The notes under the pieces: generated by a model
What the model was told of the DNA's origin: nothing
The model's database searches: none
Seen by the model: the letters and a program-made list of their open reading frames with translations, nothing else
Shown here: positions 12,601 to 64,000 of the stretch, one piece after another
Position numbering within the stretch: position 1 is the first letter of the stretch
Layout of the letters: each line of letters begins with the position of its first letter
NCBI GenBank assembly: GCA_976226885.1
Contig: OZ320317.1
Span: 24,800,001 to 24,864,000, forward strand
DNA from: Iphione sp. A-MEVVRFRX5
Taxonomy: Eukaryota
Direction: 5' to 3'
DNA length: 64,000 nt
Made by a program: the position numbers and the translations under genes

Positions 12601-12683
12601 AAGAGAGTATGCAGCTGTCAGATGCCGATGACTATGATGACCAGGTGACCAATTTTGGTCTGTCTGCCACTGTCCAAATGTAG
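423..12683 (+). CDS. IRF: Interferon regulatory factor A (IRF4/8-like DNA-binding domain plus C-terminal IAD/SMAD-FHA domain); 5'-partial, 9 coding exons in window, ~550 aa visible
   Basis: Exons 423-603 (EWARHTGKYREGLDKLEWAKWKTRLRCAFNKAPDIEELKDQSELDGPNPFKVYMF, second half of IRF DBD), 1174-1235, 4828-4891, 5053-5211, 7402-7920 (S/P/E-rich linker), 9381-9520 (NRLNVRVYYMQNVVLEEWTWNAQGFRLYYG, IAD start), 10199-10362 (LLENLMRGIYIECEEGNIYATRLCR), 10759-11008 (CVVYYC...TKIFD...VALGFG...AHKLLSE), 12570-12683 (acidic tail, TAG). All introns are GT-AG and splice phases chain without a break (1653 nt). The first DBD exon lies upstream of the window. Confidence 0.9.
1770..2720. repeat. Old degenerate minisatellites in an IRF-A intron
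   Basis: ~20-nt aagttgtc(t)ca-type units at 1770-2100, then ~45-50-nt units with core ggtcagtagtcag...gaggccc to ~2720. Confidence 0.55.
9381..11008 (+). CDS. IRF: IRF-A exons encoding the IRF-association domain (9381-9520, 10199-10362, 10759-11008)
   Basis: Motifs V.YY..., GFRLYYG, RGIYI...G.IYA.RLCR.VVY, TKIFD and LGFG match the IAD1 pattern of IRF3-9; splice phases 1/0/2/0 are consistent. Confidence 0.88.
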
Positions 12684-13600
12684 GCCCCCAGTGCCTCTGA
12701 ATATGCCAGTAAAGACAACCCTTGGAGCATCAGGGGACCACACCTCATGCCAATTGCTCTAGAACCAGAATAGTAAATCTCTACCAGGAGACTTAACTTC
12801 AAAAAGAGCGAGCAGCTTTTATTACGCTGAGGAATAGAATGACTGACTGTCCACTTTGGGTTTCAGTGCCACTGTCCAAAAAGTATGTCCCAATGCATTT
12901 AAATATTGTATCGAAGACAAACTTTGGAGCATTGATGGACTGTGCCTGGTAACAGTTGCTCTAAAACCGGAGTGTAATTCCCTCAGAGGAGCCCGACCTC
13001 AAGGAAAGCGAGCAGCTCTCAGATACCAATGTACATGTGTATGATGATGAACTGACAATTTTATATCTTAGGTCCACTTTACAAAAGTGCAAGTAAATAT
13101 ACCCTTAACTACAAACCTTGGAGCATCAGCGGACGCCGCTTAGTAATGATTGCTCTACAACCAGAATGTCATTCTTCACCAGAAGACTTAACTTCAGAGA
13201 GAGTGTGCAGCTGCCGGATACCAGTGAACACATGGAGTAACTGACCACTTTGGGTGTTAGTGCTACTGTCCAAGGATAGATCCCAAAACAGGTGATTATA
13301 TCAGTAAAGCCTGAGCGCATAGATGGACCACGAGTGGAACCCCCCCCCCCCCGCTCGAGAACTGGAATGGAATTCTCTGCTAGAGACTTAACATCAGGAG
13401 CATCTGCAGCTCTCTGATGCCCATGAATGTGATGAACTGAACTACTATTGGTCTTACGCCACTGTCCAAATGTAGACCCCCAGTATATGTGAAAACGCCA
13501 TTGAAGGCAAAACCTTGGAGTATTTATGGGCCATGCTTAAGTAGCAGCTGAGGGTCAAGCCTCCACCAGTCTTACGCACTCTGGAAGAAACGTTCAGATG
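12570..13600 (+). repeat. ~200-bp degenerate tandem repeat (5 units) derived from the IRF-A last exon and proximal 3' UTR
   Basis: Anchors gccactgtccaaa-like at ~12666, 12868, 13075, 13261, 13458 and ccttggagcat-like at ~12720, 12922, 13116, 13513. Confidence 0.8.
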
Positions 13601-15823: not shown

Positions 15824-16119
15824 ATGGCCTGAGGTCACTGCTCGTGTTTTCACAGGAGGATCCTGTTTTCTCCCTTTTGTGTCTTGAACAAATACAAATA
15901 TGCATATAGACCTCGTAATGAATCGCCCTCATTTAAAAAAAGAACCTCATAATGGTGTTGGTAAAATCCCCATGGCCTGAGGTCACTGCTCGTGTTTTCA
16001 CAGGAGGATCCTGTTTTCTCCCTTTTGTGTCTTGAACAAATACAAATATGCATATAGACCTCGTAATGAATCGCCCTCATTTAAAAAAAGAACCTCATAA
16101 TGGTGTTGGTAAAATCCCC
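15824..16119. repeat. Two identical tandem copies of a 148-bp unit
   Basis: atggcctgaggtcactgctcg...ggtaaaatcccc at 15824-15971 and 15972-16119. Confidence 0.9.
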
Positions 16120-19100
16120 AATAGTACAAACCGTATGGTATGGTTTACCTTATCACAGATTAACCATTTCTCAGATATGCCCCAGTTTTCAGACGGATCC
16201 GTAGGGAGGGCAGTGGACTATACAGTGTACATAGACATTATAGTCAGCTTTTGAGTAACTTATAGTTACAGTGATTGAACTATTAAAACCGGGAGGAAGC
16301 TGGTTGCAGAGGACAATATGTACAATGCACTTCAGAAAATTGTGTTTAATTTCTTAGCACACTCTTGCCTCGTTTTATGGACAGGAAATGGTGTTTATGA
16401 AGACGATACCGACTTACGGTAGTGGAAGGTGCTAGTAAAAATGAATCTTTATAATATTCCTACTAGTGGGAGTGACTTTGATGGTTAGTTATCTCAAACG
16501 TGTAGGATTTTATTTTTACTTTATCACTGGAAAATATCCAAGTGTGTGGTTTCATCTCTCACTGCTGTTAGTGTTAAGGAGTAGGCGTCAAGTTTGACTC
16601 AAAATAGGCTTCAGAGTGAACACATTCGTAAGCTGCAATATTCTTAGTTATAGTCAGTCCAGGTGAGGCCACCGTATAGAGAGTATAAGTTGACAGGTCT
16701 CTGACAGATCCGGTTCCCAGTGGCTCAGAGGGGTGGAAAGAGGAAGAGTGTGACACTGAGGTGACTTGCTGATCTGAAACCTCCCCACTGTATGGCTGGT
16801 TAATGTATTCAGCCTTCCCAGAGCTGCCTGTGTAGTACTTCCGACCTCCACTTCACAGCAAGCCGCTGCATATGCTGCTGGTTCCAATATTTTTGTCAAA
16901 CATTTCTATGTGCAGTCGACCATGTATGCTTCGCAGTGTACTGCTTCTGTGTAAGCTGCCACTTCATTGGCTGCCATTATCAGGTATCTCTGATCACGCT
17001 GCAGTATGATTGGCTCGAAGTGTACCCTCCATTAGGTCTCACTTCATTAGCTTGCATTTTAAAACGTGTGTATATGTATACAGAACCCCCCCCCCAGCCT
17101 CCACCCAGTTGTAGATCCATCTGCTCTGTTCAGGAACCTTTTTGCTTTTCTCCTCTACACAATAGTGCATCTCCTGGTTTAAACACAAACCCCCCTCCCC
17201 TCCTCGCGAGCTAAGCATAGATCCACGCGGTCTGAACATGAGCCTCCCTGTCCTGTCCTTGCGCCCAGTAGTGGATTCGCCTGACCTAAACAGGAACCTT
17301 GCTGATGTATTTCTTTTTTTTCTGAATATTTTTCCCGTTTTCCTAGTTCTGCTTTTATGGTAACCATAACAAACATGTATCCCAAGAGGCAGTTTTCTCC
17401 GGCACTCACCAAACAAATTTCAAAGTGTATATATAGAGAAATTATGTGTCAATATGGTCACATGAAAATGTATAGATGATTACACATTTGTGTCATCTGC
17501 CTTGATAAAAGAAAAACCTTGTTCTGCATATGTGCAGAATATCCAGTAGCTACCGTAATCACAATTGTGATATTTAGCAACATTTCAGATATCAGACTGC
17601 ATCTAAACAGAATAAGTTGGAGTGTTACTCTATCCATAGAAATGTCAGAATCAGAATATTATAATAAGAATGATTACTCTTGTATGAATGGGCCGGTCAT
17701 AGTTTAAAACTACCCAGGCCTATAACTTGGGTTTCTCGTACGATCAAATATGAAGAATAAGACAGAAAAGTACAGTCCGGCTGCATCTTCTGTGCCCTCC
17801 CCTCCCCCATCTACCAGAGTACTGCATCATGAGGAAAAGAAATTTTGTGCGATAGATTACCATATCAGATAGCTGAATTACCTTTGGCAGCCAGATTCCT
17901 GCCCTATCCAGGCTAAAATGTCTGTAAGAAAAAATTCAGAAGATGTGACAGTATGTAAAAGATGTTGACCCTGAAAATAAAAAAATACAGGGTGAATGAA
18001 CTAGGTTGATTGAGCACATATGACCACCACTTGTTCATATTGATAGCCTAGATGGTCTGCCTGATGGAGTCAAAATGTAATCAGGTAGACCCTCAGTAAT
18101 GCTGTCAAACTCCATGTTTGATATCATTGTTGAGAAGTACAGTACATGGAAATCGGTCATTTGTAATTACAGCATATTGAGAACACGTGCATGGACTGTA
18201 TTATTGGTCTGACCGGAAAATGAGCCTTCGGTAGACCTCATTTGATTAAAGTTTTACACGTCTGACCTCACCATCGAAAGGGAGAAAAAGTAGACAGAGA
18301 AATTTGTCCTCTTCAATTACACAATAGGCAATGATTTCACCAGGAAATGAGAGTCTACATCATGTCTTCACATTTGTTTCTTGGAAACAGTCCTTATTTT
18401 GTAGGTTGTTGAACTGTACATATGTATGTATGTCCTCTATACATTTGTACCCATACGTAGATCTCCTATTATCCAAGAAGGTGTAGTTATTCATATACTG
18501 AAAAACCCAGCGTTAGGCAACTGTCACGACAATATGCCACTCAAAGTGGCACTGTGGTGTACAAGGCTTCTGAACTCAATAAAGGGTGGTCTAAGGCCAA
18601 TTTTATACATGTGTCTGTTTGTATTCATACATTTTTTAAGCTCAGAGTAGGTTTCAGTAAGTTGGACAAAACTCGAAATTGTATCCCTAGGCCAATTTCC
18701 TCATGTGTTTTCCTCTTTGTATTGCACTGTCAACACAGGGAACCTTTGTTTCATGCAGGAATAATTCACATCAAAATTTAGACTGATGTAGTAAGAACTC
18801 AACCTTTGCACATTCACAATCCATGCAAAAGTGTACACATTAATTTTCATGACACAAACTGGCTGCTGCTTATAAAAATATTACTCAGTATCCACGTGTA
18901 ATCAAGGTCCACATGAAAATCAGTGAAACACACACTATTGAGAGACTCAGTTCTGACGGTCTGTTTTAGGAGGTGTATAACTGACAGACTTGGAGTCATT
19001 CCCAGCTGATCTGCTCGTGTTCCATTATGGAAATTCATATTTCTGATACCAGAATTTCCAAAATGTACGTCTAGGCAATCAGCCAGAAGTACAGTCATTA

Positions 19101-38043: not shown

Positions 38044-40595
38044 CACTAGATATGGACAAGTCCAAACTGACGCCTGTTGTGAGCACATATGTCAGAAGTT
38101 ACCCTCTGGTTGGTAGCATTTAGAGGATACAGCCATGCAGTAGTGGTCCATGCATGGGAACTAGTTTTGATCATTGTGCGGTCCTGGTCCCTGCACTCTT
38201 AAATGTGTGAATGGAGGATGTAGGTTTGTTCTAGAGCATCCAAAATACATGTACACCCTTTTCACTGAGTTTTAGCTGAAAAAAGTAAGTGCTTAAAACA
38301 ATATGGAAATTACAAAAAACACCCATTTTTAAAAGAAAAAGAAATCCATTTGTCCACCCTCGTTTGCAGGCATGTTTTCTATCTTCATTCCCTCTTGCTG
38401 GCTTTCTTTGTGATAAAATGACCCACTAGCATCCAATTTGATGAGTAAAAACATCATTAGCAGGGAAGCTGATGATAAAACACGACTAAGTTAATGGTGA
38501 ATTTGACAGATGAGACAGGAGGGTGANNNNNNNNNNNNNNNNNNNNNNNNNNNNNNNNNNNNNNNNNNNNNNNNNNNNNNNNNNNNNNNNNNNNNNNNNN
38601 NNNNNNNNNNNNNNNNNNNNNNNNNNNNNNNNNNNNNNNNNNNNNNNNNNNNNNNAGAGGAAGGGAGGGAGAGACAGACAATGACGAAGGTCAGTGTCGC
38701 TTTGTTTGCGGTCCATCTATGCATGGCTAGTTGTGGGGGAGGGCGCAACCTATCTTGTTGCTGAATAATTCCTCTCTTCATTCATAGGTGGCAGCACCTG
38801 TTTGGACGGAAATTTCCCACACCACGCCTCCGGGTCCTCCTGGGCAAGTGCCTGCACTTTTCCACAAGGGCGGGGGTGGGGGGGGGGGGGTTGGCATCTC
38901 CAATAATGCTTCACCAAGAATTGAGAGTACCCATTAACGGTTAAAGAACGAGCAAATAATGATTGACCAAGAACTTATTCTTTGATAGCGTTTCACCAGT
39001 AATTGCTTCAAAGCACTTCCTGCTCATTTGGCAGGGCAAATAACGCTTCGGGGTAAATGAATGAAACCAATAACGCTTTAACAGGTTAGTTGACATCCCC
39101 CCCCCCCCCCCCCCTGTTTTTCCGCGCTGCAGGATTTGACAACCATTTCATCACTTTCCTCGATCTTAGGGTCACCCGGACTAGAGACAGCACGTTTTTG
39201 CTTCCTCCAATGTGGGGACATTCCAACTTGCGTTCACTGGGCCTTGACCACAATACTAAAACCCCGCAGTGGGTATCTTGTACTTCGTCGTTATCACTGG
39301 AACTGTCATCCCCAGATGTGAATGCCCACTTCAGTAGATTTTTGCCATCTCCAATACAGTATACTGTGTGCAACTATTTCAGTATTGTCCATGGTCCAAC
39401 CCACCAATTTTCCAGTTTGTGATTTCTACCAGGCTTCTCAAGTGGCTGAAATAGCCACACTCTTTTTCCTACGTCTGACACTTAGTCGTCCAGGGGAATT
39501 CAGCCCATTCATCGGTCAATTCAATTAGAGACAAAGCTTTTTCAGCAAATGACGGTACAAAGCTCCTATCATGGTATTTTATTAACGTATCTGGTTACCA
39601 GCCAGTCTTTCACTGCAGTCATCTTGTTAGAGCCAGTGTCCGCTCCTTTGGTAACTTAAATTTTGAGACCTGCCTCTTGGGACCAGTCGAATACGACAGC
39701 CAACAGACAGGTAGATCCTACCAGGCCACGGAGAACCGCTTCCATAAGGCATTTAAAGGGCATTATGTGCTATCCCCATGTATGCAGGCTACCTAGACCT
39801 GAACCTGGGGGCATGGACAGCGGGAAGACTGCTCTAGGGAATTTGAATAGAACTTTCCCCATAACGTGGGCTACCTGAACCTGGATCTAGTGACGTGCTT
39901 CCCAATCAGACCCTGCCACATGTTGCAGGCTGGGAATCCCATATGTACAAGTTAACACGTTAAATCTTAAAAATTAATTTCCTAATTTACATCTCATTTT
40001 CATAAAGACACAAAATTCCCACTGCTATGCCTCAGCCTTAAAAAGTTGCAAAATTTCCACCAATATGCCCCACTTTATTATTTTCACTTTATTTATACTG
40101 GCGAAATCATACAATGTAGTGCAATTGCAGCCAGATTTACGTTCAGATAATTGTATCACAACATTTTATAGATAGAACAAGGTTAGTAGTTTAGAGTATA
40201 CGGTAGTAATAATAACCATTAAAGATAGAAAGAGTTCCGGTTTTTCGTTCATACCTATTTCCCACTTTGACCATATTTCTAAACATAGTTAGGGAGCGTG
40301 AATATAACACCGGACAACATCCTGTCCTTCCGTATTGGACCAAGTCCTTCTCACAGAGATCAATCAGGCCATCTCCAAATTCGTTATTCTCTTTCTTATT
40401 AATAGGGACCAAGTCCTTGCATAGTTAGTGAATAATGAAAATGATAGTAGGACCATGTCCATCCTGGGTTGCTATTTTAATTCACCAAGTCATACCTAAC
40501 GTGCAATTTAAACTTAGATCTGCTTACAATATTTATACAGGAACCACGTCCTTACCATTCTTCCATTGCTGGCATAAGTTAACGTTAGATAGTAT

Positions 40596-41200
40596 TTAGG
40601 GTACATAATAGTTGGCACTTATTCTCTTATCCCTACGCATCCTCTTCCAGAGGCATTTCATCTTTAGACTATCATAATATGATTCAATTTGACTAAGATT
40701 CAACGAAATCATCTGAAATTTATATATTACTGACAATTTCACTGCCTCTTTCCTGGGACACATCCATGGTATCTGTCTCTTAACTAGTTGTCTTGTTACA
40801 ACTCTCTCATCTTGTGCAATATTTCTTGGATTTACATTAAGATCATGATAATAATAGCCCAGGCGCAATTTTGTGGAATCACGTATGCCATTAAACTCAT
40901 CAATTATCATGTCTCTAGGGGGACCACGGTATAGAATTATTCTGTAAACTGTCCTTCTAAAGGTTATTAATTTCTTGTACATTTTTGATTTTTTATTAGT
41001 TAAAAGAAAGGATCCATACTCTATTATTGGGAAGATCATCGTTCTAGCCAACATGAGGGCATACTCAGTATTTAGATTCTTGCCAATATAGCGGAAATGT
41101 TTCAATTTCTGGTACCCCTTGCACAGTACATCTTTAATGTGCTCATCCCATTTTAAGCTACTAGTTAGTTTCACACCTAAGTACCTAAGTACCTTTCAAC
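40596..41200 (-). mobile_element. 5'-truncated non-LTR retrotransposon ORF2 remnant (end of RT and post-RT region)
   Basis: RYLGVKLTSSLKWDEHIKDV...MIFPIIEYGS matches the YLG...L.W..HI and P.+EY motifs of CR1/L2-group LINEs. Confidence 0.75.
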
Positions 41201-41944: not shown

Positions 41945-42480
41945 CGCCTTACTGCGAACTGGAGCTTGCCTTCAGTGGTGCAATCGGAGGGTGTAACTGT
42001 ACTTAGCAGTATCCACTATCCATGTCAAACGTGGAGAAATAATTGGCTCGCTGGATGGTATCAAGGGTACCATCTCTTCATGGTATCCTTCCATCATAAG
42101 TGAGTTGAGTTGGCAGTAATCCACGCAGAACCTCACCCCTCTGTCCTTTTTGATGTTATAACACCACAGATGAAGCCCATGGGGTAGTAGATGGTTTAGT
42201 CATCCCCTTTTCGACCATGGCCTGGAGTTTTTTCCTGCACCACCTTCGGTCTATCCCTTGGGATCCTTCACATGTGGTGCTCGAGAGGGGTACACCCTTG
42301 AGCGTTGATGTAATGGCTCACAATAAATGTGTGACCACGGGGTCTTGACGCCATCTAAAGGATGTCACAGTAGGATTGCAATTAGGATTGCACTACCCTC
42401 TTCCTTCATTATCCACTTCCTGATCGTGTCATTTCTGTTCTTCACTAAACCCTGATGAAGGCTTCACGTTGTTCCTGGAC
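41945..42480 (-). pseudogene. Heavily decayed Ty3/Gypsy reverse transcriptase fragment
   Basis: Across frameshifts: MVEKGMTKPSTTPWASSVVL..., VRFCVDYCQLN, DTIQRANYFSTFDMDSGY, GKLQF; upstream FSEEQK linker-like piece. Confidence 0.7.
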
Positions 42481-43575: not shown

Positions 43576-44663
43576 ACTCTGTAGCAGGCCTTTTTCAGAC
43601 ATTCCCGTTTCTAAAGTAGTTATAAATCCCTTGAAGACATGCCCAAAAGACGTCCCCTCCGACAGACAGATAATTGTGAACTTTTCCTACTCAGAGGTTA
43701 ACTCATAAGTTTCAGATCAAGCCTTCTATGGTATCCAAATTAATTTAAAGCTCCTTACCACTTATACCTCAGCCCCAGAAAACAGGTTTCTGTTCTTATG
43801 TGTTATCTCCATGTGCGCAAACTATATCTGAACCCGCCACTGGTGGCTGGGAGAGTGGGGAAATCAGACAAGGCAATTAAGATAGACTTATCCCCATGTG
43901 CATGGATGGTACGGACCTACCACTGGATGCATGCAGACCAATCAGTATTGGTCCGGTCCATCCGGACCCTGCCACCTCATGTGTGCTGGAAAAAGACATT
44001 TAACATATGTAAAACATTAATTAAAATGCTTGCTTTAAGTGTGTCATCCACGGATTTGAATGTTAAAGGCCTGTAAACCTCATATCAATGAAAACAGAGA
44101 CAGTACTTAGGGAGTCAATGACTCGTATCCCACACCACACATTCGTGTATTCTATAGACAGCTCCATGATTTCCAAATCAATGTATACATGTGTAGTCGG
44201 TTAAATTATTCATAGAGCAAATGTTTACTCCGTTTCAAGTCCCATTTGCACTGGATTTTAACGGATGTGTCAACATCGAGGTTTATCATTGTGATTCAAT
44301 GCAAATCAAAGGCATAAATCAATGTACAGATACACAAAGCAAAGGTTGCAGTAACCAGGGTGATGTATGTCGGATAATAGACAGGAGGAAGACCTCCGCA
44401 CCCTTTGTTCTCTTAACGGACCAGAGGATAGATGAGGAAACAGGGAGTTTATCGTGACGGAGACAGACAGCGAAGGAAAGCAACGTTGTACATTCAAAAC
44501 AAATTTGGTGCCTATGCTACTATAGTGGTGCTTCTGAATCTACACTTATGAAAAGATTTTATTTCTTGCTGAACCCACAGTCACTGGAGGAATATAAAAG
44601 GTGAACATTTCGTGACGAATCACACAGGAGGAATACACCCCAGACACATTCGCACTCAAAATA

Positions 44664-46514
44664 ATGCTTTGCCATGGAGGGAAAAAAAAGATTTTTATTG
44701 ACGCTGATGAGAGAAGCCCCCCTGACGTTCTGCCCGTATGGATCGAGTCGATTTGCTCAGATGAACGAGCCAAGGCCGAGCAGCTCCTGGAAGCAAGTGA
44801 CTCCAAAACCAGACAGTTCCTTCTCCATGGGACCTTCCCCAAATGGAAGCCTGTGGAGTGTGAACATAAGAAGGCTTGTAGGTGCTATCCACCCTACCTA
44901 GATTGGGTTGGCAGATGTTCCCTGAACATTGCGGTCTACATGCCCTCTCCAGGGATCCTCCATCTCCTTCTGGCCCAAGGGGTGGACTTTCAGGCCCAGG
45001 GGGAGCCCCCTGGAGGCCTCCTCCATCGACTTGTACAGTCTGCCTACCACCGCCGGAGTAAGATGGACAAATACATCTCTGTCTACCTCTGGTTCTGTCA
45101 AAATCTGGACAGACATGCCATGGCAGCCTTACTCAGTGTTGAATCAAGCGATGGCTTGAGACCACTAGAGAAGGCCGTACAGTTGGGGCTGTATGATATC
45201 TTTTACCTTATCCTTGACACACCTGGTGTTTACCTGGCCGAACAAGAGAGGAAATTCGGAATGGCCTATAAACGGTACGATATCAGTGACTACTTGCTTC
45301 CCAATGGCAAACGCAGGAATGCCTCTCCTCTGAACAGTATGGTCCTGCTTGATGGCGCCTGCATGGCCAGACAGGACACACAGTACTTTCTCCAATCACT
45401 CCCCATTCAAACGTGGTTCACATGCAAGTACAGAGCCTTGAGGCACATCCTGGCCATATCAGTAGCTAATCACCTCCTGAGGATCGCCGTGTTCTTCGCC
45501 TTGGAACAAGAAAAGCTGATGAAAAAACTGCAGAGCTGCAGCCAGGTCAACAACATGTCCCTGTTACAGGGTGATATCTCACGAAACACAACTGAAATTC
45601 ACCATGACTGTCAAGTCGATGTCTCTGTTGTACCTATCGCACTTGCCAGTGTATATATCTTCATAAACTTAGTGCTATCCCTCCTAACGTTGGTATCAAC
45701 AAGAAAGATGTTCAGCTCTTACAGGGGAGTCAGAAACAAGATTCCTGTAGTGGAGCCCCTTTTCTTTTACGCGATTGACGTGTGTATGGACACAGTCATT
45801 TTAGCGAAGACGCTTGTAATTTTACTATTGCTGGTCGTTGCAGATACCTTCCACCCTCTCCTACTGCAGCTCCTATATATTCTAGATCTTGCAGTTCTTC
45901 CATGTATTTTCAATAGTCTTCGTTTCCTTCTCATCACCGACATCGGTCACCTTGTTGTTATATTGCAGAACATGATTAGGGACTTCCTCCAAGTCTCAAT
46001 CATACTTCTAACTTTTCAGTCCATCTTTGCCGTGGCCTTCTACAATCAGGCCACCGTATACAACGTTGAGGCATACGGAGCAGACGGTCACACTAGCTTC
46101 CAGACTTGGGACCAGAGCTTTTACAACATGCATGAGCTGATGCTCAACACCATCAAGATCAGTGATATTCCCATTCTCAACCCTGCTTACCTGTTTTCAC
46201 TCCACGTGATTTACACCTTTCTTGTGCCGATTTTGCTGATCAACCTCCTCATCGCAGTCTTTTCGGACTCTGTCTCAAAAATATCCCAATACAAAAACCT
46301 CGTCCTGATGTTCCAGCGCTACGTCATCGTCAGTGAGGTGGAGAAGTGGTTGTGCTGTATTGCTCCAAAGTGGTATTTAACATTATTGGGCGAGACGTTC
46401 ACCCTGAAAGATGGCAGACTGTACCTAGTGATCCTCTCAGTGGATGAACACCTATGGTCTCCGGAGAGGTCAATACCAAAGTTGGACCCTTCACTGCTGT
46501 CTGTTAGTCAGTGA
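44664..46514 (+). CDS. Single-exon TRPV-like (TRPVL-type) cation channel, 616 aa
   Basis: Ankyrin-like repeats (LLHRLV, DGLRPLEKAVQLGLYDIF), pre-S1 KRYDISDY, six hydrophobic segments, S4-S5 linker DIGHLVVILQNMIRDF, pore helix SFYNMHELML, S6 ILLINLLIAVFSDS and a TRP-helix equivalent; uninterrupted ORF. Confidence 0.85.
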   Translation: MLCHGGKKKIFIDADERSPPDVLPVWIESICSDERAKAEQLLEASDSKTRQFLLHGTFPKWKPVECEHKKACRCYPPYLDWVGRCSLNIAVYMPSPGILHLLLAQGVDFQAQGEPPGGLLHRLVQSAYHRRSKMDKYISVYLWFCQNLDRHAMAALLSVESSDGLRPLEKAVQLGLYDIFYLILDTPGVYLAEQERKFGMAYKRYDISDYLLPNGKRRNASPLNSMVLLDGACMARQDTQYFLQSLPIQTWFTCKYRALRHILAISVANHLLRIAVFFALEQEKLMKKLQSCSQVNNMSLLQGDISRNTTEIHHDCQVDVSVVPIALASVYIFINLVLSLLTLVSTRKMFSSYRGVRNKIPVVEPLFFYAIDVCMDTVILAKTLVILLLLVVADTFHPLLLQLLYILDLAVLPCIFNSLRFLLITDIGHLVVILQNMIRDFLQVSIILLTFQSIFAVAFYNQATVYNVEAYGADGHTSFQTWDQSFYNMHELMLNTIKISDIPILNPAYLFSLHVIYTFLVPILLINLLIAVFSDSVSKISQYKNLVLMFQRYVIVSEVEKWLCCIAPKWYLTLLGETFTLKDGRLYLVILSVDEHLWSPERSIPKLDPSLLSVSQ

Positions 46515-51500: not shown

Positions 51501-52670
51501 TTCATATTTTGTGCTGCCATGTGCTTGGATTAGAGAGGATCCCATTTTTCATGGCCATGCATTCATGTTTTGCACAGCACTATAGGAAAAGCCAGAATGA
51601 AAGGGCCTTGTTAGTTATATTTCACGTAGAAAAAGAAGATATTTCAATATATTTTCTCACTTTTCCTCAAACTTATTCAGCAGTCTTGCAATTTTTCTGC
51701 CAAATTTAGATAGATTTTACCATTTTTCAGTAACGATTCATGAGTTTTGTCATTTTTCAGCCAAATTGAGATCAATTTTGCATTTTGTCTGGAATTTACT
51801 ATTGTTTTCCATTATTTTAGTTGCATTTTATATTTTTTAAAACTAAATTTGCATGGATTTGTTGTTTTTCTGCTGAACTGACCCAAAACATATGCAATGA
51901 AAACATGTTTAAGGACGTTCAGCCTTGGGAACTCTTGAGAGCAAGAACATTTTTAGGTAGGGTAAGGTTTTACTAGGTAGGGGTGGGTAACCAGAACCAA
52001 ACTTATCTTTTTACGGCTTTAGCCCTTCCATGCTTGGACCTACCTGAAAATCTTAATTATACCTGACTTACACATTCTCCAGAACAACCTGCCTGATGTT
52101 ATCATCGCAACTGTCAGACCTGCTTGAAAGCCTGAATTATTCCAAAGCTACACTTTCTCTATAGTAAGCTCTCTCTTTGATCAGATGTTTGTTTGTTTCA
52201 CCTTTTATGTTCTTTGCTATCCTTGTGGATTCGAAACCTCTGTACAGAAATAAAAGTGCAAATTAACAAAATCCAACTGCTAGGCCTCGCTGAGGGATTA
52301 AATTCAGGTTGCACCATGTAGGAAGGAGCTATACCAGTACAACATATGTTTTAGTGGATTTCTATGACTCTGTCTCAAAACAATATTAGAATTCACATTT
52401 ATTGGTCTGCTAGTGCAATGGTACGTATGATAATCCACAGATATTTGGAGCGAATCAGCAATAGAGGGGGCCTCAGTCACTTATATCCGCATAACACTCG
52501 TTCTTAAAAGCCTTAAATTGAAAGCTTGAATGAAATCTGCGTTGCATTCGCTCTCCAGATAATTTCCTTCTCCCCCCCAGTTCACACATACAGCCGCTAG
52601 CCTGATTTGTGCTCTTCTCTCATTTTTGTGACCCTGAGTATTTACTATTAATACTATCAGACGATTTTGT

Positions 52671-52780
52671 CCATCTCTATTTGAACGTTTGTATCTTTGA
52701 TTACGGTATCATGTAAACACTTTGCCCATCTCTATTTGAACGTTTGTATGTTTGATCACGGTATCATGTAAACACTTGTA
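52671..52780. repeat. 55-bp tandem duplication (2 near-identical copies)
   Basis: ccatctctatttgaacgtttgtat...ggtatcatgtaaacactt at 52671 and 52726. Confidence 0.8.
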
Positions 52781-56351: not shown

Positions 56352-58229
56352 CTGGAAGATGAAGGCAGGAACAGACTTGCTGTAGTACATGTAGAATAAT
56401 TGAGAGAGAATAGTTACTATGGAAATGAGTGCATGGATAGAGCTGAAAGACAATAGAGGTGACAGGGATTATCTGAACATATCGAAGGTACATATTACGT
56501 AGAAAATTACAGATAGATGTTAAATGGACATTGCCTGGGCACAGAGAAAGCACAGAGTGAGGAAGATGATTTATTTTGTAGAAAGGCACAGATAAAAAAG
56601 AGAGAGCATTCGATAAAGACAAACATTTCATGAAGGCACAGAAAAACATACCGCATAGAAATGTTTTGATGAAGATAAGAGGTATTACATCATTTGCATC
56701 AATGCTCCAAGATTTGAGTGAATATATAGAAAACAAGGCAACATAACTGAATAGGCATTACCATGTCTCTGTGCACATTTTATACTGAATGATTTAGCTG
56801 GGTTATACATAATCCTAGAGGAAATAGGGTTTTATTGATGTCATTGTTCCAATAATCCAAGTTTCCTTAACTTTCGTTGTCCTATTTCATAAAGCTTTAT
56901 GGAGGGAGGAAATGAAAAGAAAATGTATAGCTTGTAGCTCTGATACCGCGGATAATCAATAAATCACAATCAAAATAATATGTCCCGTGTACGTTTACTA
57001 AATTCATCGGATCTACCTTTACTAGTCTAGGAGGAGATAAAAACACCACCTGCTAACACAGAAATGAACAACAGAATGCTTTCCTTTGCCCACCGTGCTA
57101 TACATGTATAACGGAGTGGTATGTATTACCATTTAAATGACTATATTGCTTCACACACTTCACCAGTTCACACCGAGACATTCATCGGTCATATTTCGCA
57201 AGTAGTAAACCTTTATAGAGCCTTACAATGAACTGAAGTGAATCGATTATAGACAAAATCATTTCCGTGAACTGAATACGGCTCCATGCTAGCGTCCCTG
57301 TAGTATTTTGTTACTTGGTCACACGGCACAAATTAAGAAAGGTCTATCCACAAGCTTCAGTATCCCGGGGGACAAAGTGCTGCTAATTTCCTGAGCACGC
57401 AGCAAGAAGAAAAACCCGCGAAAAGCCTCCAGCGATGGCAGACAAAGGAAATGCTACTTTTAGACTCTGATGGGATCAAAAGCGTTTTAAAAATAAAAAG
57501 GGAACAAAAGGAATCTATATATATTTACATACTATGTATTGTATACATGTCTTGACGTGCATTGGGAGTGCACTCTCAAAATGGGATAAAATACGGGGAC
57601 CGACTTTGGAATTATTATACAAGAGTAGAGAACTGACAGTATATTAAGCAGTCTACCTTCACGCTGTGTTTCTCGTACCTCGGAAGATGAATATTGACCA
57701 GTAAAAAACACTTCCAAATTCCAATTCATGATGCTAAGAAATCTGAGGCGAACTAACTAACATGCCGGGATGATCAACCCATATTCTATCCATCCACAGG
57801 TCTTCAGTATTCTGTAAAAGCGTTAAGGTTTTTCTCCGTATAAAAGTACGAAATGTATATAAATATATATTATGCGCCAAAGCTAAATTTGCACAATTCT
57901 GAAACGGTGCGGTGCAATTTAGGAAATGCAATGTAAAATTCCAGAATTTCTGTTTCCTAAATGATAGGGCACAAGACTGAGGAAGGGAAACAGGTGAATA
58001 AAGAGAGAGGGGGGAAGGAAGGAACAGGGAGATATCGTGGAAAATAGAGGGAGAGAAAAAGGAGAGGGAGAGAGAGAGGAGAAAGGGAAGTCTGGCTCCT
58101 ACTTTCACCCTTTCTTACTCTCTCTATACCTCCCTCTTTATCCCAGCATCCCTCCGTGGCAAAACTGTACAACTGCCGGACGATCTTGTGTCTAATGACA
58201 AGAGCTTGTTCAAAAGAAAAGCTAACGTT

Positions 58230-58705
58230 TGTAACAAAAGACACCAGAGCAGGTTCTTCAAATCGTCCGGCCTTTATTTCTGAAGCACAGCATCACAGGT
58301 TACACGGTCATCTCTGGCGGATCCCAACTAGGGACACGCACTTCAATCCTTATATACCCAGCAATGACGTAAACAACGCTAACGAAAGTATGCAAAGCCC
58401 GCCACGCTATCACCAGCGGAAGTCTCGTTAGACATCACACGATTGATCACCCATTGTGTCGACTCCAACTAGCTACAGTATCGCATGCTTCTACTGATAA
58501 TACCTCGTTAATTGCAATGGTCACTTCGTCAACAAGATAAGGACAACCTGTTTACAAGTTAGGCGTCATGTACGCCAATCGAAAATTTTAACTGCGTCTC
58601 CAGTAAAAGGTCTTTCTTTAACTGCGTATATCTGTACACTATACAAAACACAGTATGCCCTTCTCTCATGCATATATTCTTAACTCATTCTGGTACTGTG
58701 TCACA
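58230..58705 (-). repeat. 3' LTR (476 bp) of the Gypsy element
   Basis: Begins TGTGACA immediately after the PPT and ends TGTTACA; contains TATATAA (58350-58356) and AATAAA (58273-58278) in the expected order on the minus strand. The 5' LTR is outside the window, so identity and TSD are unverified. Confidence 0.8.
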
Positions 58706-59916
58706 TCCCTCCCCTTCTTGAGAGCAATGCCACCATTGCCCAGCGTATGTATGGCCAAGGCTATTGACTGATATTATCAGGACAACTTGGGCCGTTGTCC
58801 TTACACAAGACTATACGCTCCGTATTCAGGTACAGGAAAACCTAGCTGGCCATTATCTGAACCTGCCTAGGCTATTGGAAGAGGGCATCATCCGGTCGCT
58901 GCAACCACGCACGCTGCCATCGGATCTGGAGTACGTCCCAATGGAGAAGGAACTACTCACCCGGGAAGAACGAGGCATATTCTCGGTCATATCTACACCC
59001 GGACTTCCATCACAAAAATATTCCTATCTTCCTATCCTACTGTATCATTTTAATTTCATTCTTGTGTATTTTATTTTGTTTGTTTAAGAGAACCACCCGT
59101 CACGCTCCTGTGACTGGAATTCAGCACACCACGTCCTTAGGGAGTTGCACAAGGACCGCATTTTCTCGTCTGCTGGTGAAGTACAGATCAATCATTCTCA
59201 TCGTAAGAGTGGGGGTAACCTCTTGGAAAGAAAGAATAGAGTATGGGAATACGGAACTGAAGCAAGGCCTTGGCCGACAAGCTCAGACTCCCTGGATGAC
59301 CATGAGAGATCCCTTCACAGGGAAGTGGACAGCTTGGGCCCACCACCTCACAGAAGACTACAGTCCGTAGGAAAGAAAGTGTGGCGGCCCTAAGGCTCAG
59401 ACCAATCCTTGGAGCGCTAAGAGGAGGGCACTCCGAAACAATATGTACAACTAGGAGACCAGTCCTCTCAACCTTCCGCGGCAGTCTGACACCTTCCCGT
59501 TACTAATTAACCCAAGCGATTATAGTGATTTTATCCTCCTTACAGGTAATATGGTACGTGTTGATTCACAACCATGGCCATCAGCCTCTTTGTCCATTAT
59601 TTCAAGTCATCACAATTCAGCAATTGGTTACACAAGATTAAATGTTAACACGCGTTGGTTACATGTCATGACATTCACGGTATACATACTTTGTTTGGTT
59701 TTTTTTTTGTTTTTTTTTTTATTTCCAATAATAACAACAACACTTTTCAACAATCGACCCGTCCGGCGGTAACTACACCAGAAACAACAGCAACAACAAG
59801 ACATCTTGAGCGGTAGACTCGCCTGGTCTAGCACTCGTGTCGACACTACATAACAACAGTATACCTTGAGCGGGAGATCTTCTCTCCACCTGCCAACCAT
59901 GTACTCATAACCCCAT

Positions 59917-62108
59917 TTACTGAAATACGGAAAAGGGATACTTCTTGGGAGCTGTCGCCTGCAACCCCGTGTTGCCCTCGGGTCTATACACTTCAAGCTG
60001 CTGGGATGGACCATTAGACAAACGCACCGCACACTCAGGCACCACTCTCTCAGGTTCAGGCAAGGGCGGAATGGCATAAGTGACAGTGGTATTAGTAGGT
60101 CGCACCCGTTCAGGACTTTCCTTCGCACCTGCTTCCCCTAAATTGATGGTAATAGGAGCCGACCCATTTCCTGACCCCCTTGGTCCCATAGGTGACCGCT
60201 GAGCTAAGCGCCTCCATTTTCCCTTTTTGCACAAACAACAATAGCAGCACATTCCCAAAGTCAGTGCTGAACTCAATCCTCCTAACGCCCAAATAATCAT
60301 AGAAGTCATTGAGGTTCCTGGCAACAAGGGATTATTTGCCACTCGATCGTACAGGTTATTAATACGTTGCATGATGTCTGCTACATCTGACTCCATTAAC
60401 GCCGGAAGAGGTTGCAAGTTCCCTGTATGGTTGGGAGATTCAGGCAGATTTGGGGTCCAGACCAAAAGTTCGTTTACCACAAGCCCAGTAGGTAACACAA
60501 TAGGGTCACGCTCTACCTCATACTCGCTCCTCTGTTGGTAGTATGTTGGTAGTGACATTTGGTCCCCAATAGCTCCACAACCATTTGGCAAGTTCACTAG
60601 CGCAAACGGCGCCGGTACGTTTCTCCGATACATCGTACCGTTAACACATTGAATCCGCAAGGTCAAATCCATGGGCGTAGTCACCACCCAATTGCCCCTA
60701 TCCAAATAACGCGCTTGCGGCATGGACACATTGTCCAGTACAATTCGCTGGCACAACTCGCGAACCCGTTCTACCTCTCCTCGGAAGATAGCCATAACGC
60801 AATAAGAGTGCATATTCAGTTCGTAGACGGAGAGGAGACGAGGTAAGACCCTTCTCGCAACTGACATCTAACCAGTTCTTCGGTGGTCGCAATGGCATAA
60901 CGCCGTCTGTCCTTGGTGACTCTGAAGTAGGTGAACTCCAACTGGAACTGAACAGCTCTGCCCGCTTGAATAGGTACAGGAATGTTCACTGCCTCATACA
61001 TCGTGTATGAAGCCATCGGGTCAATTAGCGAAACACTCACAGAAGTGATGATTCGTCCCTCAAAGATGATGGTAGTTGTCTCTAAAGTACTATAGTAGCT
61101 CCACACATCATCAGGCTCAAAAGGTAACTGGAGTGTTGGAGGCAGCTGACGAGCTACACCAGCAAGCAACTCCTTCAGCTCAGTAGCCGGAACGACTTCA
61201 GGTGTCAAATGTCCTCCTAACAAGTGATCTACTCGGGCCTCAAGTCAGTCGACTGCGCTTTCCCAAACAGCTAACTGATACTCGAATCTGGAGAAATATC
61301 GCTCAGCGTTTAATATGGTATGGATATGCTGTATCTCCTTCGCGGTAATGTTACTAGCGCGCTGTAAAGCCTCCCATAAATCTCCTTCTACCAGCTGTAA
61401 TTTACTCATCACGTCATTCACACCATCTCTGTTTCGCCTAATCTCAACTCGAGTCTGATTGATAAGAGTCATCATGTCTCCCATAATGGTCATCATTTCC
61501 AGCTGTTGTCTCTGCATTTGTCCCACGCGATGTTTGATAACATGGATCTCATTTCCTACCACACCAAAACCAGTGGCGGTACCGGCAACCAGCGTGATAA
61601 GGCCAGTCACAGCCGCTACCATGACTGCCCGTTTCTTCCTGGGTCCCGTTCGATTAAGAGCTAGAGACGGATCATGGACGGTAGCAAACGGAATGCGCCC
61701 CGGCCGAGTCTGCACCCCAAGCCGCGCTATGCTGTCAATCCGCTGCAAACCCAGACGTATTCGCTCCAGTAACACGTCAGCTCGGTCCATCTGCGATCTC
61801 ATAAGGGTTCTCGCAACCGTTTCTGTACGTACACGATCCCCATAACGGTGGCGCGGCGGCATAACCAAATACGCCATCTTCAAGAACCCGTTTCTCGTCT
61901 TGTTCAACTGCTCTTGTAGGACATAACCGGCTTCCTTGTATTGATCATATTCCAACACCAGATCAATTCTCCATGTCGACAACACCGATCTCACATCCAG
62001 TCTCTTTTTGAAGATCACATTTTCCAAGGAGCCCTCCTGCGATTGGCCAACCCACGCCAACAACATCAGAATCAAGAGGCCACCTGGAAGTAAAGAAGAG
62101 AACCGCAT
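59917..62108 (-). pseudogene. env: Envelope/fusion glycoprotein (class I-like; baculovirus F / errantivirus env-type architecture), ~730 aa, one nonsense and one frameshift
   Basis: Signal peptide MRFSSLLPGGLLILMLLAWVG, furin site RKKR (61629-61640), fusion peptide AVMVAAVTGLITLVAGTATGFGVVG, heptad-repeat region, G.L.P..+P motif, Cys-rich region, TM IIWALGGLSSALTLGM followed by CCYCCLC and a cytoplasmic tail. In-frame TGA at 61245; frameshift near 60826. Confidence 0.85.
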
Positions 62109-62111
62109 TAA

Positions 62112-64000
62112 TTATGGTTCACTCTTCTCTATCTTCAACGCGGAACGCAACACATCAGCTACTTCATCTAATTGCGTCAATACATCAACTAATGCATCCG
62201 TTGTCTGGCCTATCTCTTCCTCCTCGACTAACAACACCTGTTGGTCAGACCTAGCTCGTTTTTCTACTGGCGGTACTTCGTCCATCATGCTCTGCTCGCG
62301 TTTGACCACCGATCTAGTCCGGTAAGGCGCCAACCCATGGCCCTCTACCCTAGACCTAACTGCAACTTGATCACTCTCTCTCCCTCTTTCCATATTCTCT
62401 TGGGTCTCCATCGGATCCACAGCTATTACGGTCGGAACAACTGTGTCGGTCTGCCCTTCTACATGGTCTTCATGCTGACCTTCTCACCCTCCCTCCTGAC
62501 TCAGGGTCGTTGAGTGCAGGTTCTCGCGATGAGCTACAGGACCATGCGCCTGCTTCGGTGGACTCGCGCTTCCCGCGGGGCCCTCCACCTCAACCCGCCC
62601 TTCCTCCTCGGGATTGGGGTTGACTACCCTCAGCACGTCATGCTGACGTTCTCTTCCAAACAATTGGGCCAACGGGATTTCGTCTTCTGAAGAGAACTCG
62701 GATCCGCTTCCCTCGGATCCCCCCTCCTCCGCCGAGCCCAAGTCGGACGGAGAGGACGAGCCGGCTAAAGCAACACGCCGGCGCGGTCATCCCATCTCTT
62801 CGCGTTTCTGCGGCAACCTACAGTCCAGGTCCGCTAACCGAAGACGATCACTGTGGACCTTACTCAACTTCCCCGTTATCTGATCCTTGACCACCAAGTT
62901 GACCGGCAACAAACATTCCACTACGCGATGATATGGCCGCCACCTCATATCCAGCTTATGCTTCCGCAGGGGATTCTGTACATAAACAGGGTCCCCCACC
63001 TCAAAGGACACATCAGTGGCACGCTTATCATGATACTTCTTCATGCGTTGCCGCGCTTTAGCGACATTGTGACGTACCACTGTCATGGCTTGGTGATGCC
63101 GCTGCATCGCCAATTTATGGTGCTCCTCCCCGTAATACCACAACCTTGGTTGGAGCAAAGTGTCCAAAGGCAACACTGGGTCTCTCGCATGCAGCAAGTA
63201 AAAGGGAGTGTACTTAGTCGACTCATTCGTACTCATACGCATAGCCAACAAAGCTGAGGGAATCACCTCCTCCCAGTGTGCCATATCGCTCAACGTCAAC
63301 TTCGCCACGATGTCATTCCATACCCGATGCATGCGCTCAACCTTACCGTTCGCAGCTGGATGGTACGGACTTGTGGTGATACGTACTACACCGAGTTCCT
63401 TACAGAGACCTGCGACAACCTCGTTTACAAATTCCGTCCCATTATCCGACAACAATACCACCGGCATCCGTGCCTAGGCATAATGTCCGTCGCTAGGATC
63501 TGTGCGACCGTCATGGCCCTCTTATCAACCATGGGGAACAACTCTGGCCATCCAGAATAGACATCGATCAAGGACAACACATACTTGTACCCCGCCTTGG
63601 ACTCAGGATATGGCCCACAGGTGTCGACCGCTACCTTCTGAAACGGAAAGACAATGCTCTCCATTTCCTGCAGTTGCCTCAGCTGCCTTCTCAGGTTCCT
63701 TGTGTTACACTCAACACATCGCCTGATATATCTCACGACATCCACATACAGATTTCTCCAATAATACAGTCCGCGTATGCGATCATACGTTTTATCAATC
63801 CCCATATGCCCCATCCGATCGTGTTGCTGATCCAACACTGTATTATGGAACACCTGTGGTACCACCACACGCAAGCGAGCTTCTGGACGCTCACTCACAT
63901 AGTACCACAACTCCTCCAGTCGCACAAACTTTGGCCCCTCCTTTAGCCGTCGGCATTCAGGGTCCTGCGCCTGTGCCCTTTTCATGTCTACGTTTCGCAA
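62112..64000 (-). pseudogene. pol: Gypsy pol 3' part: integrase (HHCC, DDE, GPY/F) plus acidic C-terminal extension; disrupted
   Basis: HDRMGH...CVEC zinc finger, VAVD/SDNG/KVER catalytic triad, FEVGDPVYV...RWRPY module; 1-nt deletion near 63462 and in-frame TGA at 62787 and 62484; terminal TAA at 62112-62114. Confidence 0.92.

Follow-up and report, generated by a model that had tools for sequence, protein, structure and literature searches.

A broken F-type envelope gene in a probable env-bearing Ty3/gypsy retrotransposon of Iphione sp.

The DNA analysed in this study, a stretch of 64,000 nucleotides from the Iphione sp. assembly (hereafter the window), carries on its minus strand retrotransposon sequences in the order pol (integrase), env, polypurine tract (PPT) and long terminal repeat (LTR), the positions of which are given in Table 1. 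The env reading extends from an ATG at 62108 to a final TAA at 59919-59917 and comprises 2,189 coding nt, or ~730 codons, divided into three pieces by one in-frame TGA (61247-61245) and one frameshift near 60830. The frame shared by pieces 1 and 2 is open to 60819, the homology changes frame near 60830, and piece 3 lies in an open frame at 60867-59920. The window also encodes a TRPV-like protein.

Table 1. Positions of the env, pol and LTR features within the 64-kb window.
Feature	Positions	Strand	Details
pol 3' end	62112..64000	-	Last part of the bridge; integrase with an H2C2 zinc finger and a core of D,D-35-E spacing; ~225-codon acidic tail, TAA 62114-62112; runs off the window
Putative acidic motif SSEDEIPLAQL in the Pol tail	62661..62693	-	Identical 11-mer in P0279; tail otherwise variable
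env piece 1	61248..62108	-	287 aa; predicted signal peptide (~1-24), cysteine-free F2-like N-terminal subunit, RKKR, fusion-peptide-like segment, helices of the N-terminal heptad
Predicted furin site RKKR (residues 157-160)	61629..61640	-	Sequence and conservation
Predicted fusion peptide, residues 161-185	61554..61628	-	Hydrophobic, Gly-rich, after RKKR; hydropathy 1.91; G168 and G176 nearly invariant
Premature TGA in env	61245..61247	-	Homology runs on in frame past the TGA
env piece 2	60830..61244	-	Frame of piece 1; head-domain strands; profile E 1.7e-40; ends at frameshift near 60830 (tblastn frame switch)
env piece 3	59917..60829	-	Ectodomain part rich in beta structure and bearing cysteines; membrane-proximal region; weak TM segment with CCYCCLC (60309-60229), 103-aa Pro-rich tail, TAA
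Region between env and PPT	58720..59916	.	1.2 kb; on the antisense (+) strand, successive open frames with 121, 169 and 105 codons
Polypurine tract AAGAAGGGGAGGGA, 14 nt	58706..58719	-	Sequence
Inferred 3' LTR	58166..58705	-	TG start 58705, TATATAA 58356-58350, AATAAA 58278-58273, then long hairpin

A first-pass annotation of this DNA had ascribed to env the complete layout of a viral fusion protein. The signal peptide that it proposed coincides with a hydrophobic stretch at residues 1-23 of piece 1 (19-residue Kyte-Doolittle maximum 1.92), although the label rests on hydropathy. The RKKR said to end at residue 160 is present (157-160) and is the sole R-x-K/R-R motif of piece 1, and the hydrophobic, fusion-peptide-like stretch placed after it was likewise found at residues 160-185 (Kyte-Doolittle 1.91). 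R160 was conserved in at least 90% of the alignment rows, in which G168 and G176 were nearly invariant. The proposed heptad repeat agrees with long predicted helices at residues 184-205, 212-250 and 256-286 in an AlphaFold2 monomer model of env residues 1-413 (X at the stop; mean pLDDT 78.7). Piece 1 contains no cysteines and four N-x-S/T sites, and four cysteines lie within the homologous ectodomain part of piece 3. Conserved cysteines do occur in what had been called a 'Cys-rich' region, but they are only a handful and the label was overstated. A candidate for the announced transmembrane (TM) segment is a run of 27 uncharged residues followed by KKGK, aligned with the TM segment of the relative P0166 (see below). 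However, it is weak, its hydropathy being 1.69 versus a median of 2.66 in 101 long relatives, just six of which were equally low. The CCYCCLC cluster (residues 207-213 in the numbering of piece 3, at the end of the hydrophobic stretch 189-213) and the tail, estimated at ~100 aa and measured as 103 aa, were both recovered; at least two cysteines at the TM end were seen in 31 of the 101 relatives, a feature that is common rather than general. The signal-peptide and palmitoylation-like labels reflect hydropathy and motif only.

A phmmer search with pieces 1 and 2 (X at the stop) retrieved 544 proteins at E ≤ 0.001, and the best 150 of them were examined further, 101 of these being at least 550 aa long. 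Piece 3 was matched by 98 of the 101 long relatives that had been recovered with pieces 1 and 2 among the best 150 of 544; an R-x-K/R-R motif within residues 60-260 was found in 82 of them, and a C-terminal hydrophobic segment in 96. When a profile was built from 109 relatives, pieces 1, 2 and 3 matched it in this order with E values of 5.5e-24, 1.7e-40 and 3.3e-39, at profile positions 19-246, 259-393 and 404-615, respectively. Since all three pieces fall in order on one profile, the match is more than chance. The family matched by all three pieces comprises proteins of 550-870 aa, one relative being from the abalone Haliotis. Among 57 relatives taken from the best 150 and scanned with Pfam, 40 matched Baculo_F (PF12259) above the cut-off and 17 had no Baculo_F match. 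Among full-length relatives, P0166, with 713 aa, comes nearest; it shares 36% identity with pieces 1 and 2 and 40% with piece 3 over 210 aa, and it matched PF12259 above the cut-off (E 3e-13).

The Pfam scan of the window env pieces themselves returned no family, and a PDB sequence search with them gave coiled-coil or chance matches only and no solved fusion protein; the F assignment of the window env therefore runs through its relatives. Compared with the PDB, the family profile hit two chains named 'fusion protein' (9w4d, E 2e-23; 9w4c, E 2e-22), which, judged by their sequence, are probably baculovirus F. Word-based homolog searches confirmed none of 7,998 candidates for pieces 1 and 2 and none of 840 for piece 3 against longer proteins. 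Likewise, there was no usable match to piece 2 in the Atlas and no relative of piece 3 in IMG/VR, and none of the 192 stretches found by searching JGI metagenomes with env patterns was confirmed.

The comparison with viral fusogens by Foldseek, which the first-pass annotation had recommended, yielded F proteins. With the 413-residue model of the window env, all five matches at E ≤ 0.001 were paramyxovirus or pneumovirus F proteins, with TM-scores of 0.18-0.29. When the model was aligned with Foldseek's hits by VIA-align, Z was 7-8, an unrelated designed helical bundle coming first at 8.7; the alignment with the head of RSV F covered 142 residues with Z 8.0 and rmsd 4.4. The structural support that the window model itself gives is modest. 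The model of P0166 (pLDDT 71.7) matched RSV F at 2.5e-10 and baculovirus F at 1.9e-22, and its fold matches also included proteins of chu-like RNA viruses and one of an abalone herpesvirus. In the Atlas, P0166 fell near Baculo_F and Fusion_gly clusters at 0.95-0.96 but with a low recognition value, and we treat this as a lead only. No gB chain was among the PDB matches listed for the models of the window env and P0166, those listed being F proteins, and given this positive match a gB-type (class III) identity is very unlikely as judged from the models. The env is of class I and F-type and not of the SU/TM type of vertebrate retroviruses, and the earlier label 'retrovirus-like' has to be replaced, its relatives being the F proteins of baculoviruses and Mononegavirales.

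The window env resembles the F proteins of paramyxoviruses and pneumoviruses (hPIV3 1ztm, RSV 3rki, hMPV, henipaviruses) in predicted fold and domain order but differs from them in sequence (7-15% identity) and in having an N-terminal subunit without cysteine. In paramyxovirus and pneumovirus F proteins, F2 and F1 are joined by a disulfide. The N-terminal subunit lacked cysteine also in 70 of the 82 relatives having a furin motif; an inter-subunit disulfide is therefore predicted to be absent, and the two subunits of the window env would not be disulfide-linked. Baculovirus F was among the best fold matches of P0166, yet the identity in the structural alignments was 12-15%. The predicted signal peptide, furin site, fusion peptide and TM segment are shared with the Env of Drosophila gypsy and baculovirus F (PF12259, PF07253) as described in the part of PMC4276936 used here. 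The env of Drosophila gypsy is made from spliced RNA, whereas no site fitting a strict splice-acceptor pattern was present on the sense strand at 59917-64000 of the window, and the env ATG starts in frame 3 nt past the pol stop.

The integrase zinc finger encoded upstream of env matched PF17921 above the cut-off (E 7e-18), and the core matched PF00665 weakly on both halves. This reading, too, is interrupted, near 63464 by a frameshift and at 62789-62787 and 62486-62484 by TGA codons. Over two frames, the window integrase was 63% identical to the Pol protein P0279. The 18 closest Pol proteins were 41-67% identical over the integrase, and the sole taxon-named one came from the pearl oyster Pinctada. 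The domains of P0279 follow the Ty3/gypsy order PR-RT-RH-IN with one RNase H region of the RT type, and no second RNase H family was found in it by Pfam. The ~150 residues between its RNase H and the integrase zinc finger are without a Pfam match and are compatible with the 'mini' bridge domain of the 'ancient errantivirus' group, which there takes the place of a pseudo-RNase H behind the RNase H. Of the 18 closest Pol proteins, 8 had the pattern [DE]x[ILV]PL[AS]x[ILR], chosen after the acidic motif in the Pol tail had been noticed, within their final 400 aa, as compared with a mean of 0.02 and a maximum of 1 in shuffles. In IMG/VR, the single window integrase found no relative, and a query with the integrase alignment found one weak locus.

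The claim that env belongs to a Gypsy element was supported by the integrase upstream, by the PPT and LTR downstream and by the linkage of env relatives to pol. Similarity to the integrase was used to collect 81 loci, of which 80 were the best among 271 matches in metagenomes and one was a viral contig, and many of the loci stop soon after the integrase; in five of the 81 the same env type followed downstream, and other copies pairing this env with pol, on which the first-pass annotation had made its reading depend, were thus found. One of these loci, L003, contained gag, pol and an unbroken env of 692 codons. The ENA contigs of origin measure 8,355 bases for both P0166 and P0279, and 6,741 bases for the two members of a second Pol-env pair. 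From the equal base counts of the source contigs, the nearest env and the nearest Pol cluster appear to share a contig. In the env tree (130 rows) the window sequence grouped with P0003 and P0166 with a support of 1.0, and in the Pol tree (19 rows) it grouped with P0169, a cluster mate of P0279, with a support of 0.995. The PPT and LTR noted earlier were also located, the LTR beginning with the TG next to the PPT. Its other end is most likely at 58166 (TGTACA) and alternatively at 58230. No second LTR was found within the 64-kb window, and because the window has a single LTR its ends are inferred and unconfirmed. The LTR contains a perfect 10-bp inverted repeat (58175-58184/58262-58271), and the hairpin there had a z of -3.48 in a region picked after the repeat was seen.

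The region between env and the PPT has open frames on the opposite strand. The longest of them (58861-59367), tested after it had been noticed, was reached in 9 of 1000 dinucleotide shuffles. Two of the antisense frames share the motif T-x-W-A-x-x-L-T-x-D-Y; a 12-residue match between two frames coincides with a 34-nt DNA repeat that could equally be a cis-element, and an acceptor-like site lies near 59545. The antisense frames had no Pfam family, no notable PDB match and no IMG/VR relative, and against the fetched integrase loci the best E was 0.03. A tblastn match of one frame in locus L030 (E 0.013) was set aside, as it was absent on re-run. HBZ of HTLV-1, an antisense gene transcribed from the 3' LTR, provides a model for an antisense reading. 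It is a tentative and rather unlikely suggestion that the element was a complex errantivirus, with a decayed and possibly spliced antisense accessory gene in this 1.2 kb transcribed from the 3' LTR.

Altogether, five lesions were counted in ~4.0 kb, two in the 2.2 kb of env and three in the 1.9 kb of pol. The one nonsense codon and one frameshift reported earlier are correct for env, but the adjacent pol adds two TGA codons and a frameshift. All three in-frame stops are TGA, an outcome with a probability of 0.01-0.02 in models that include no CpG effect and of 0.11 in one with a tenfold effect. The observed/expected ratio of CpG was 0.48 at positions 1-58000 of the window and 0.85 in the element; from this difference the host DNA looks methylated and the element looks fairly recent. 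The earlier suggestion of methylation-driven decay gained modest support, and on these sequence grounds CpG-linked decay is modestly favoured. Under simple neutral models, three stops in 1,339 codons correspond to 66-81 substitutions or 1.6-2.0%, and the Poisson limits on three stop events widen the neutral change to ~0.4-5%. The element is probably young, with ~2% neutral change and a wide error. The env reading stops at codon 288, short of the anchor, and the integrase also has a frameshift, so that the copy is predicted to be inactive. The most that this env copy would make is an unanchored fragment of 287 aa.

The interpretation that we favour, with a probability of roughly 0.9, is that the locus holds the broken env of an env-bearing Ty3/gypsy retrotransposon, i.e. 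an errantivirus in the broad sense, the env being related to the F proteins of baculoviruses and paramyxo/pneumoviruses. The intact form was likely a signal-peptide-bearing, furin-cut, trimeric fusion protein serving the cell entry of particles. As far as the sequence can be examined, the testable features of a broadly defined errantivirus are present, namely a pol that ends in integrase, with env, PPT and LTR behind it, and the linkage of env to pol elsewhere. RT, RNase H, gag and the 5' LTR would fall outside the window, and the lineage and age given here are accordingly provisional. It is improbable that the breaks come from errors in sequencing or assembly and that the animal carries the element unbroken. 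The window is indeed draft sequence that has gaps and runs of N, but the lesions are five separate ones within ~4.0 kb, the three stops are all TGA, which CpG decay explains better than uniform error, neither frameshift region has a long homopolymer, and a host frame of 632 codons in the same window is unbroken.

Slightly less credible still is an affiliation with a lokiretrovirus- or Odin-like lineage near retroviruses instead of an ordinary Ty3/gypsy errantivirus. The Env of lokiretroviruses, according to the part of PMC7947760 used here, has a signal peptide, RXKR, fusion peptide, coiled coil and TM and resembles paramyxovirus F, and its layout and F-type similarity are like those of the window env. 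However, the same source describes lokiretroviruses from vertebrate hosts and with a tether and RNase H in pol, whereas the named relatives found here are molluscan (the Pinctada Pol and the Haliotis env) and the nearest Pol, P0279, shows no second RNase H by Pfam; moreover, the env relatives matched PF12259 and not PF00523. We consider least probable of all that env was domesticated by the host, or is an endogenous viral gene standing alone, and lies beside an integrase remnant by chance. It is against this idea that env begins directly behind the pol stop, with a PPT and an LTR after it, that env and pol have decayed alike (2 lesions/2.2 kb vs 3/1.9 kb) and that their pairing recurs at five related loci, even though a domesticated F-type env is known in Drosophila (Iris; PMC1262188, in the part used here) and the F-type fold is likewise seen in chu-like RNA viruses and in the abalone herpesvirus protein.

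Env-bearing Ty3/gypsy elements of this kind, which the first-pass annotation called much less characterised in marine invertebrates than in insects, have been described before from a wide range of invertebrates, and the window element is ordinary in this respect. Chary and Hayashi (eLife 2026; PMC13524379), in the parts of the article used here, describe 1,512 env-bearing Ty3/gypsy elements from most animal phyla, with F-type env among them and mostly in multiple copies, and report no such elements in echinoderms or sponges. The 35 rows used from part 1 of the 34 parts of Supplementary file 1 are all annelid, and 34 of them are F-type; in the rows of that source used here, many polychaetes, two clitellates and one hemichordate carry F-type elements. 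The part of PMC8220671 used here holds nothing further on env in annelids. The F-type 'ancient errantiviruses' of non-insect animals described in PMC13524379 have the order pol-env-LTR, as does the window element, and their F-type ectodomain is flanked by a signal peptide and a TM segment and includes a furin site and a hydrophobic fusion peptide, like that predicted here. Unlike them, the window copy is broken, and the likeness is one of description; the element could be one of the families listed there in clades A1-A11 or a separate one. The criteria given in PMC13524379 include continuous ORFs and copies >98% identical, and in the window copy five lesions interrupt the ORFs. The antisense frame after env and the Pol-tail motif are features of the window that are not mentioned in the sections of PMC13524379 used here. 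A literature search on antisense or extra ORFs of gypsy elements and on integrase-tail motifs turned up mostly work on plants, yeast and rotifers, and neither feature is put forward here as new.

By analogy with the F family, the intact env protein would enter the secretory pathway, trimerise and be cleaved after RKKR; the freed hydrophobic peptide would then insert into the target membrane, and the heptads would refold to a hairpin that drives fusion. If Drosophila gypsy is taken as a guide, the purpose of this machinery may be that particles made in somatic cells bring the element to the germline. The mechanism of transmission outside Drosophila is called elusive in the part of PMC13524379 used here. 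The Pol-tail motif would carry more weight if it were shown to steer integration, and the element would matter more if the antisense frames are a real accessory gene. The window element adds one decayed member to a class whose catalogue dates from 2026, and it belongs to a sub-lineage in which env has diverged enough to escape Pfam and word-based searches. The contig that the nearest env and Pol relatives appear to share supports the idea that F-type env and pol move as a unit in the Ty3/gypsy elements of invertebrates.

In the decayed env-bearing Ty3/gypsy element, the TAA stop codon of pol is followed after 3 nt by the ATG of env in the same frame (62106-62114, minus strand), and no site matching a strict acceptor pattern was found on the sense strand of the element (59917-64000). 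This 3-nt in-frame spacing was absent from three related loci fetched by integrase similarity (L003, L005 and L012).

We observed a series of open frames on the opposite strand between env and the inferred LTR, the longest of which was matched in length in 9 of 1000 shuffles, in a test made after the frame had been noticed. Two of these antisense frames have a common 12-residue match (7/12 identical, E 0.014 in pairwise comparison), which results from a 34-nt direct repeat, 76% alike, at 58780-58813 and 59327-59360. An acceptor-like site lies at about 59530-59545 on the plus strand of this region, and a search for relatives of the antisense frames found none. The inferred LTR contains a long hairpin (58166-58285, minus strand), which begins directly 3' of AATAAA; its energy of -37.5 kcal/mol (z -3.48) was equalled in none of 200 shuffles, the region having been picked after the inverted repeat was seen.

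Features of the element and of the surrounding window
Feature	Window positions	Strand	Basis
Antisense open frames, 121, 169 and 105 codons in series	58720-59916	+	open-frame reading
Motif D/E-x-I-P-L-A/S-x-L, variable acidic Pol tail	62661-62693	-	sequence comparison
Unbroken 632-codon frame	44616-46514	+	PF00520 (ion-transport domain) at E 7e-5, which falls short of the cut-off
Low-complexity open frame, 177 codons	7392-7925	+	no Pfam match
Low-complexity open frame, 188 codons	27937-28503	-	no Pfam match
Low-complexity open frame, 228 codons	33315-34001	-	no Pfam match

Elsewhere in the window, the 632-codon frame also gave a weak Pfam ankyrin match, and we take it to be similar to a TRPV5/6-like channel. 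The three low-complexity frames are probably host exons. We read two minus-strand stretches, 41988-42381 and 39472-39567, as remnants of other retroelements, since tblastn matched them weakly (E about 1e-5 to 1e-7) to the parts of the Pol relatives that hold RT and RNase H. By eye, 40596-41195 (minus strand) resembles a non-LTR element tail. Degenerate tandem units of about 200 nt (4-5 copies, 60-80% alike) occupy 12624-13510. Tandem duplications occur at 52666-52777 (55 nt, 94-95%) and 15824-16120 (148 nt, exact), the latter possibly an assembly artefact.

When the model of P0166, the closest full-length env relative, was compared with BFVD, an uncharacterised abalone herpesvirus protein (A0A145VUZ2) ranked sixth (E 5e-20), and several chu-like virus glycoproteins were also among the best fold matches. 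In L003, an additional 337-codon frame lies between pol and env (10016-11026, plus strand). Its Pfam matches, every one below cut-off, are of coiled-coil type and zinc-finger-like, and it is reminiscent of the additional SMC-like gene that certain lokiretroviruses carry (PMC7947760).

The Pol-tail motif recurs in 8 of the 18 closest Pol proteins (P0169-P0186; shuffles, mean 0.02, maximum 1; pattern picked after the motif was seen) and is present also in L002 and L003. It is a candidate host-factor or targeting motif.
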